From Eledone cirrhosa (Eukaryota), in NCBI GenBank assembly GCA_964016885.1, contig OZ024761.1, positions 23,436,001-23,500,000 of the forward strand: 64,000 nt of DNA, read 5' to 3'. Position numbers and translations under genes: made by a program. The notes under the pieces were generated by a model that did not search any database, was not told the origin of the DNA, and saw nothing but the letters and a program-made list of their open reading frames with translations. Shown here piece by piece: positions 3,705 to 63,914 of the stretch (the stretch's first letter is position 1; each line of letters begins with the position of its first letter).

Positions 3705-3945
3705 ATCCCGAGTTCAATCGGGGGTAACCACAGTAAGTAAGGTACTCAATATTTCTAAATATAGTTTTTAAAGAATCCCTCTTCTTTAAACATATCAACC
3801 AATGACCTCCACCCATCCCAATCACCACCCTTTCCTACCACCATAAAAGATATAAATACCCCCATATTACTCGGACAGCTGCTTTCCTGATGTTTTCTCC
3901 CGAATGAAACAGTTCTAGTCCTGTTGAAGCCTTTCTATATTAAAT
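3705..3945 (+). mobile_element. Family A Penelope-like fragment: inverted tail followed by a pLTR with a degenerate hammerhead
   Basis: Inverted tail CCCGAGTTCAATCGGGGGTAACCACAGTAAGTAAGGTACTCAATA, then CTGATGT..GAATGAAACAGTTCTAGTCCTGT; the body is homologous to 63425-63600 (minus). Confidence 0.75.
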
Positions 3946-3964
3946 ATATATAGAGTGAGAGATA

Positions 3965-4075
3965 GAAATAGCTGTTGAAACGGTAAAAGATCAGCCGTTG
4001 GTATCATGACTCCTTATAATATAACCATACTCTACTACCCCAAGTATTGAGTACTCTGTTTCAAATTGAATCCAT
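3965..4075 (+). mobile_element. Family E-related fragment
   Basis: GAAACGG..CAGCCGT and CTCTACTACCCCAAGTATTGAGTACTCTG match 43965-44047. Confidence 0.6.
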
Positions 4076-4094
4076 CCTAATTTATATATGCATA

Positions 4095-5816: not shown

Positions 5817-5882
5817 TATTTTATCTGATGAAAGCGCACCATAATTTGCCTTGGTTACCCTTGAAATATATATAATAAAATA
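5817..5882 (+). ncRNA. Minimal type I hammerhead ribozyme, family C (element about 5755-5925)
   Basis: TATTTTAT-CTGATGA-stem II-GAAA-TATATA-TA-ATAAAATA: 8-bp stem I and a palindromic loop III. Confidence 0.75.
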
Positions 5883-47371: not shown

Positions 47372-47426
<55 letters not shown>

Positions 47427-47427
<1 letters not shown>

Positions 47428-47617
47428 ACGAAGGAAATATGGTAAGGAACCAGGTGAACCATAACGCACCAAAGTACTCAATACTTAGGGTAGTAGAGTG
47501 GGTAATAGGAACGAGTAGGACCCCGACGGCTGAGCTCAAGCCGTTTCGACGGCTAATTTAGTCCAGAATTAGCCGTCGAAACGGCTTGAGCTCAGCCGTC
47601 TGGGTCCTACTCGTTCC

Positions 47618-47620
<3 letters not shown>
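47427..47620 (-). mobile_element. Family E fold-back element
   Basis: Palindrome 47505-47620 with its loop at about 47559-47567. Confidence 0.85.
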
Positions 47621-47655
<35 letters not shown>

Positions 47656-47660
47656 ATATA

Positions 47661-47963
47661 TGCAGAGGTTATATTTAATTTGTTGGGATTCAACAAGCTT
47701 AAACATTTTATAACTAATATAAAGCACTCAACAGTTTAGTGGAGTAAATATACAATATATTAACAAATGGAAACTATATTTATAAAACCATATTTATTTT
47801 ATTATACATATTTCAAGGGCCACCAAGGCAAATTATGGTGCGCTTTCATCAGATAAAATACAGATTTGTTTTATAAATAAATATTGACATACCCGGAAAA
47901 AAAAGACAACCTTAACGGTTGGAGCTTCCAGGAAGCTCCAACCTTTAAGGTTGTCTTTTTTTC
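47661..47963 (-). mobile_element. Family C element with full tail, hammerhead (47795-47860) and terminal fold-back
   Basis: Reverse complement of 5755-5925; hairpin AAAAAAGACAACCTTAA..GGAGCTTCC-A-GGAAGCTCC..TTAAGGTTGTCTTTTTT at about 47897-47963. Confidence 0.8.
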
Positions 47964-50848: not shown

Positions 50849-50896
50849 TTCCTGATGATTTCTCAAGAATGAAACAGTTCTAGACCTGTAGAATCT

Positions 50897-50898
<2 letters not shown>
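50844..50898 (+). ncRNA. Complete type I hammerhead ribozyme, family A, solitary
   Basis: TGAGATTC-CTGATGA-TTTC-TCAA-GAAT-GAA-ACAG..CTGT-A-GAATCTCA; 8-bp stem I and a GUA site. Confidence 0.9.
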
Positions 50899-50971
<73 letters not shown>

Positions 50972-63654: not shown

Positions 63655-63914
63655 TATCGTATTGAAAAACAAGATGACGTAGGACAGAACAAAGGAGATG
63701 CACAAAAACAAAGAAAAGAATCCCAGTCACTGAAGAGGTCACAGAATGTGTGACGAAAGAACTTTGACAATATATAAACAATCACCTGGTTGTGGAACCA
63801 ACCAACCAACCGGAAATTTATAAATTCCTAAATTTATAAATTTATTATAATAAATTGAAGTGAAAGCAACTGGTGCGTGTGTTTCTTATTGGCAACATGA
63901 CCCTCCCAAAGTAT

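Follow-up and report, generated by a model that had tools for sequence, protein, structure and literature searches.

Short inverted insertions of a Penelope-like element in Eledone cirrhosa share a fixed 5' wall at a predicted transcription start within loop II of a predicted hammerhead

Penelope-like elements (PLEs) often carry inverted terminal structures, the origin of which is called undefined in the available text of PMC8557442. Very short PLE insertions have been ascribed to 5' truncation (PMC9977147, in the text available), and a transcription start inside the pLTR has been reported for Penelope and Chlamys-3 (PMC2377424, PMC8557442). The Poseidon PLE of Anolis (PAc) has been studied in vitro, where both target strands are cut and extended from two internal start sites and ribozyme cleavage is not needed (PMC11167929). 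A hammerhead with a U3-A8 core has been published for the PLEs of Schistosoma (PMC4209133), and the description of the Hydra clade, as far as it is accessible, also gives the absence of CCHH (PMC8557442).

The window, a stretch of 64,000 nucleotides from Eledone cirrhosa, is part of a 3.0 Gb genome rich in (TA)n. It holds three palindromic copies of a repeat that we call family E, each a head-to-head pair of arms inside a TA run (Table 1). Positions in the element are counted from the A of AGTCCAG (+1), which in the reference parent, locus L152, is L152:2949. The arms are unequal in all three copies, one ending at +61 and the other at +140. An earlier note on this DNA had described GAAAC and stem III with a GTC triplet in each of the two arms of all three copies and the absence of CTGANGA from each of them, and both observations were confirmed; what the arms hold of a type I hammerhead is its 3' half. 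The note also had the palindromes centred exactly on one hairpin. The centre region is indeed shared, but the hairpin as written occurs only in the 47.4 kb copy, and its left half is the reverse complement of the 3' strand of native stem II, not the 5' strand as had been thought. Similarly, the copy near 3965 starts at the same place (+6), as claimed, but it is non-inverted and only 75% identical. TA runs flank both sides of all 30 top matches in the genome, and of most copies in a sample of 100 that is described below.

Table 1. Coordinates in the window of the family E copies, their parts and their flanks
Feature	Position	Strand	Remarks
Long arm, 47.4 kb copy	47426..47558	-	element +8 to +140; hammerhead 3' half, first RT start site, then a 79-nt tail up to the second RT start site
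Short (tailless) arm, 47.4 kb copy	47556..47620	+	element -4 to +61, inverted relative to long arm
Junction, 47.4 kb copy	47556..47558	.	3-nt microhomology (overlap) common to both arms
Predicted transcription start (+1)	47560	+	initiator-like TTAGTCC within the parent's hammerhead loop II
Type I hammerhead 3' half, short arm	47570..47605	+	stem II 3' strand 47570-47577; GAAA 47578-47581; stem III to 47599; GTC 47598-47600; stem I 3' strand with one substitution at 47601
Same half-hammerhead, long arm	47522..47555	-	GTC at 47527-47525
(TA)n target microsatellite, left flank of 47.4 kb copy	47387..47425	.	
(TA)n target microsatellite, right flank of 47.4 kb copy	47621..47661	.	
Second copy (17.7 kb)	17694..17881	-	long arm +13..+140 = 17694-17821 (-); short arm +2..+61 = 17822-17881 (+)
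Third copy (43.9 kb), other subfamily	43901..44090	+	short arm +1..+61 = 43901-43961 (-); long arm +11..+140 = 43961-44090 (+); 2-nt overlap
Diverged single non-inverted relative	3964..4083	+	starts at +6; 75% identity over 93 nt

The family is large. A core word of family E had 25,928 exact matches in the genome against none for the reversed control, so the copies are not due to chance; a tail word had 33,439 matches, again against none. Family E copies that extend upstream of +1 have a common native 5' half. L152 contains two repeats at a distance of 3.1 kb and between them a frame of 786 codons, the first ATG of which is L152:3180 (+232), with a predicted protein of 719 aa; the family E unit measures 3.1-3.5 kb. 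YRDD and VIY..YIG motifs were read by eye in this frame, and its Atlas protein-cluster neighbours, at 0.96-0.99, carry HTH_animal, GIY-YIG or RVT_1, while Pfam and PDB searches with the L152 protein gave no matches. RWR, DKT, a CxCx5C linker, CxxC and CxH were likewise read by eye in protein P0001. Judged from these sequence features, the family E parent is an EN+ PLE, with a predicted reverse transcriptase (RT) and GIY-YIG endonuclease in a single ORF between pLTRs; its motifs and (TA)n preference would place it with the Hydra clade, an assignment made by eye against the published description. All 10 long loci, which were picked as inverted pairs, have inverted structures, and L151 and L152 also contain tandems. 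The tail sits on one arm of a pair, and two tails were found in 1 of 77 insertions. A non-LTR retrozyme was also considered. Such elements are described, in the text available, as tandem repeats in which every unit has a complete hammerhead (10.64898/2026.07.22.740005); the family E stubs are dispersed, inverted and without the core, and this identity was rejected.

The earlier note had predicted an upstream parent with ACCCC, a CTGANGA core and CGGCTA. A parent with ACCCC, a core and CGGCTA does exist, but its core is TTGANAA rather than CTGANGA and its loop II is 37-39 nt long; the literal pattern gave a single match genome-wide, which is unrelated to family E. With the TTGANAA core the parent pattern had 4,466 genome matches, as against 9 with CTGANGA (C3-G8), and among the first 100 of the 4,466, read by eye, 81 have U3-A8, 17 a C3-A8 mismatch, 2 U3-G8 and none C3-G8. 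The C3-A8 subfamily (L122, L137, L143 and others), at 17 of the first 100 parents, has thus multiplied with a ribozyme that is probably impaired. A CTGANGA no more than 30 nt from the 3' half was tried as a mark of parents and rejected: there were 37 matches, and all 30 inspected are junction or two-family chimeras. L040 and L046 are head-to-tail chimeras in which a half-hammerhead of another family is joined to family E at +1..+8, and these joins create an artificial CTGAAGA..GAAA arrangement.

For L152:2885-3012, the fold of minimum energy is a type I hammerhead with stems I, II and III around an unpaired core. Stem I pairs -48..-44 with +42..+46, the core spans -43..-37, and stem II pairs -36..-28 with +11..+18 across a 37-nt loop II, after which come GAAA, stem III and GTC at +39..+41. 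Stem II has a pair probability of 0.6-0.76 when 128 nt are folded and of 0.4-0.5 when 290 nt are folded. The parent has the 3-8 core pair, the GAAA and the NUH triplet of a hammerhead, and departs from the canonical CUGANGA. On the other hand, the fold energies of the parent (z = -0.21) and of the stub are no better than those of shuffles, and the same holds for stem covariation among 19 aligned parents of 39 distinct ones, with 91% of cells paired; the only two-sided change in the alignment is the 3-8 pair, in three rows that were selected for that core. Rfam gave no hammerhead match for the parent, and for the window only below-threshold microsatellite and hairpin miRNA matches among the best 150 of 497. 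The parent of family E thus has a predicted type I hammerhead with putative self-cleavage activity.

The arm ends were read in the first 100 exact tail matches on one contig (C1), a sample with a bias towards young copies in which a few loci are neighbours or duplicates. An adjacent inverted arm is present in 77 of them and absent from 18, and 5 run more than 290 nt upstream. The long arms start in -5..+7 in 54 of the 100 copies and the inverted arms in 57 of the 77, whereas no arm of either kind (0/100 and 0/77) starts in -49..-28, the core and stem II 5' strand. Few start in between, at -27..-6 (4/100 long, 4/77 inverted), or in the stem II 3' strand at +11..+18 (4/100 long, 9/77 inverted). 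Beyond this wall, 34 of the 100 long arms begin downstream of +10 (30 of them past the stem II 3' strand) and 8 upstream of -49. The 3' ends are fixed too, with the inverted arm ending at +61 in 68 of 77. The earlier note had proposed clustered inversion centres as its check, and in these 100 copies the centres do cluster within stem-loop II.

The wall sits on TTAGTCC or TCAGTCC within loop II. Both words fit the initiator consensus YYANWYY, and a TATA-like TATTTAAA lies at -29 in the main family E subfamily, varying between subfamilies and absent in L076. The wall is likely to be a transcription start. Ribozyme cleavage, which would fall at +42, was rejected as the source of the 5' ends: the starts at +41..+43 number only about 4 of 100, and some of these are deletions between AGCCGTC repeats. 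Internal deletions between these repeats (+12..+18 and +35..+41) recur in L107, L196, L221 and L222 and are possibly RT template slips.

Other families in the same genome served as controls. Family B has 12,082 tail matches. Among 70 loci examined, the start falls in -5..+7 of CCAGATT for 28 of 70 long arms and for 30 of 50 inverted ones, +1 having been placed after inspection of the data; 7 of 70 and 5 of 50, respectively, start inside stem II. A TATA box, TATAAATA or TATATATA, stands at -30, -30, -32 and -24 in four reference parents. The wall of family B lies upstream of the whole ribozyme, and for this reason its stubs mostly keep CTGATGA. In the window, stubs of family B with an intact CTGATGA hammerhead are found at 3850-3950, 24607-25102, 30474-30602, 50852-50900, 55133 and 63449, and its palindromes have their turning point shortly before the ribozyme, some 30 nt past TATAAATA in the parents. 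Two motifs are common to families E and B, GTATTGAGTAC in the tail, which separates the two RT start sites (window 47470-47490 and 3740-3755), and AAATACCA at about -25; they are candidate protein-binding and promoter elements.

The evidence for a wall in families D and G comes from few copies. Thirty family D loci were read by eye: about 10 start at +1..+7, some 80 nt before the core, 6 are long parents and 14 start downstream. A family D insertion adjoins the 47.4 kb copy (window 47660-47962), with a palindrome centre at about 47930, some 80 nt upstream of CTGATGA, and arms whose likeness ends after about 32 nt, at a splice-donor-like motif; others lie at 5825, 10504 and 30843. Head-to-head insertions of two families, E:G, were found at L031, L047 and L053 through a junction-dependent pattern, with the junction near 1510-1530, and in all three the family G arm has its start at one shared site, CAGTT, some 110 nt ahead of its core. 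No TATA at -30 was found in families D and G. A pyrimidine tract with YAG is at or near the wall in all four families. Across E, B, D and G the turning point is thus specific to the family, and it does not follow stem II. Family C forms a 513-nt palindrome of 99% identity (window 17004-17516; also at 63730), with a CTGAAGA hammerhead in each arm and its centre about 55 nt upstream of the core.

The junctions vary from copy to copy, in agreement with the independence that had been claimed for the copies. A genome search found 4,141 loci in which both arms carry +1..+9 with a spacer of 0-10 nt, and zero-loop junctions are not simple fold-backs. The arm that extends further 5' is the tailless one in 44 of 77 insertions and the tailed one in 24, and in 9 the two are equal; this speaks against a simple fold-back, since the tail could not be copied from a tailless first strand. 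At 11 variable sites, 28 of 35 scorable arm pairs are identical, 5 differ at one site and 2 at three, while of random pairs between insertions only 1,169 of 5,000 (23%) are identical. The matching arms fit one RNA read twice, a fold-back predicts them equally, and they speak against a general two-RNA model. The commonest junctions use 3-4 nt over which -4..-1 and +7..+10 are complementary. Of 17 untemplated ends at +1/+2, 10 have a non-parental G in front of them, compared with 11 of 68 bases further up; before the TA-joined ends, the first 100 of 420 read by eye had 6 G, 0 A, 8 C and 86 T. A cap-derived or terminal-transferase base would give an extra G at cDNA ends. The excess of G is small, and could reflect terminal transferase activity or chance.

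Taken together, we consider it probable that these insertions arise from two target-strand-primed cDNAs, each reaching the RNA 5' end inside loop II, that are joined by microhomology. The insertion is a pair of head-to-head short copies of a Penelope-like terminal repeat in (TA)n. Both nicked target strands would prime reverse transcription at two sites, +61 and +140, in cis on the RNA's own 5' UTR; each cDNA would run to the RNA 5' end, at the predicted transcription start in loop II, and the two cDNA ends would join through 0-4 nt of microhomology. The stubs would lack the catalytic core because the copied RNA would not contain it: the core precedes the predicted start by 37-49 nt. Post-insertion central deletions could also reshape junctions, and 24 of the 77 insertions show a geometry compatible with fold-back.

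The earlier note had explained the palindromes by native stem II, which would stop the RT, after which the cDNA would fold back on the hairpin and self-prime. The ends do lie inside stem-loop II, stem II is predicted to pair with the probabilities given above, the 9 inverted arms that start in its 3' strand would suit such a stop, and self-priming has been proposed for PLE junction palindromes in the available text of PMC3846280. However, for an RT going 3' to 5' the first base of stem II is +18, and a hairpin stop would put the ends there and not 4-23 nt later. Of the 100 long arms, just 4 have their start in +11..+18, as opposed to 54 in -5..+7: the ends lie past a fully copied 3' strand rather than at its base. 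The 5' strand required for the fold-back is never copied, both arms are complete in the 4,141 loci, the tail could not come from a tailless first cDNA, and the tailless arm is the longer-reaching one in 44 of 77, and the wall of family B is upstream of its own stem II, as it is in families D and G on few copies. We therefore hold a stop at stem II to be very improbable; the observation behind the earlier note was largely real and its parent half right, but its hairpin-stop mechanism is not supported. An alternative that keeps the wall as the RNA 5' end has the second arm made by fold-back on -4..-1/+7..+10, or by self-priming on antisense RNA, with the tail trimmed later from either side. Self-priming on antisense RNA has been proposed for PLEs (PMC3846280, in the text available), the arms match within insertions, the commonest junctions use exactly this microhomology, and the tailed arm is further-reaching in 24 of 77. 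An extra step is needed, though, for the zero-loop and both-complete junctions, for the two-family E:G pairs, for the one or two discordant arm pairs of 35 and for the opposite asymmetry in 44 of 77, and we think this explanation unlikely.

The wall could also be an RNA processing site, either a 3' splice site or a nuclease cut, with no transcription start. The pyrimidine-rich tract and YAG at the wall in families E, B and G would fit, as would the D. virilis Penelope intron, which ends at the ribozyme according to the available text of PMC4209133. But many arms still contain the AG and as many as 4-5 nt in front of it, the junctions examined show no recurrent upstream exon or leader, and the ends of family D begin about 6 nt before its CAG, which makes processing improbable. 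Nor does it seem at all probable that a ready-made palindromic mini-element has spread as a unit with an inherited centre: the 40 of 40 scored top matches that cover the whole 192 nt at 96-100% were selected for likeness, while the tail-anchored sample contains many different junctions and both arms change together across subfamilies.

Beyond family E, we give about an even chance to the proposal that most short PLE insertions are complete copies of the mRNA 5' tip, primed twice in cis on the 5' UTR, rather than random truncations, that the inverted pair records the transcription start within a few bases, and that the family E promoter lies inside loop II. If so, the 5' copy in the family E mRNA would be a half-ribozyme unable to cleave and the 3' copy would be whole, the commonness of half-ribozymes in this genome would be explained, as would the failure of CUGANGA-based searches to find family E, and stub ends would map PLE promoters from genomes alone. 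With tens of thousands of young insertions and measurable arm ends, family E can discriminate self-priming from two-strand priming. The literature searched, with subscription papers outside its scope, yielded no report that maps PLE stub ends to the transcription start. What appears new is the fixed wall at a predicted promoter within loop II; the class of element itself is already known.

In LINE-1 twin priming, a single RNA is the template for two cDNAs, one primed by each target strand, and their joining by microhomology results in an inversion. The LINE-1 arms come from different parts of the RNA, whereas in family E both arms span one 5' segment and stop at a fixed wall. Among PLEs, and within the text available for each source, the inverted-pLTR EN+ insertions likewise have partial tandems, a 5'-truncated inverted copy at the 5' end, a one-ended tail, junction palindromes, TATA/Inr-like motifs in a pLTR and microsatellite targets (PMC3846280, PMC8557442). 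The stubs there have been read as 5' truncation or self-priming, while the family E ends map to a family-specific wall, and the tail is 79 nt in family E against 30-40 in those PLEs. The Hydra clade likewise has a C-terminal GIY-YIG, DKT, CxCx5C, CxxC and CxH near the C-terminus, and (TA)n targets, and differs in RWK (RWR in family E), in a unit below 3 kb (3.1-3.5 kb) and in a canonical hammerhead where family E has the U3-A8 core and a 37-39 nt loop II (PMC8557442). The 13-nt core word of family E is absent from one text supplement of that paper, and other supplements may describe the family. PAc likewise has two tail-defining RT start sites, priming on both strands, an AT-rich target and an uncleaved RNA template, while in family E both start sites are in the predicted 5' UTR, with the first ATG at +232; inverted pairs and 5' ends are not a subject of the available PAc text (PMC11167929). 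Finally, the Cercyon PLEs of Schistosoma likewise have a type I hammerhead in the pLTR with a U3-A8 core and a palindromic loop III, and opposite-strand pairs nearby; unlike those minimal hammerheads, that of family E has a stem III of 5-6 bp and a long loop II that holds the predicted transcription start (PMC4209133).
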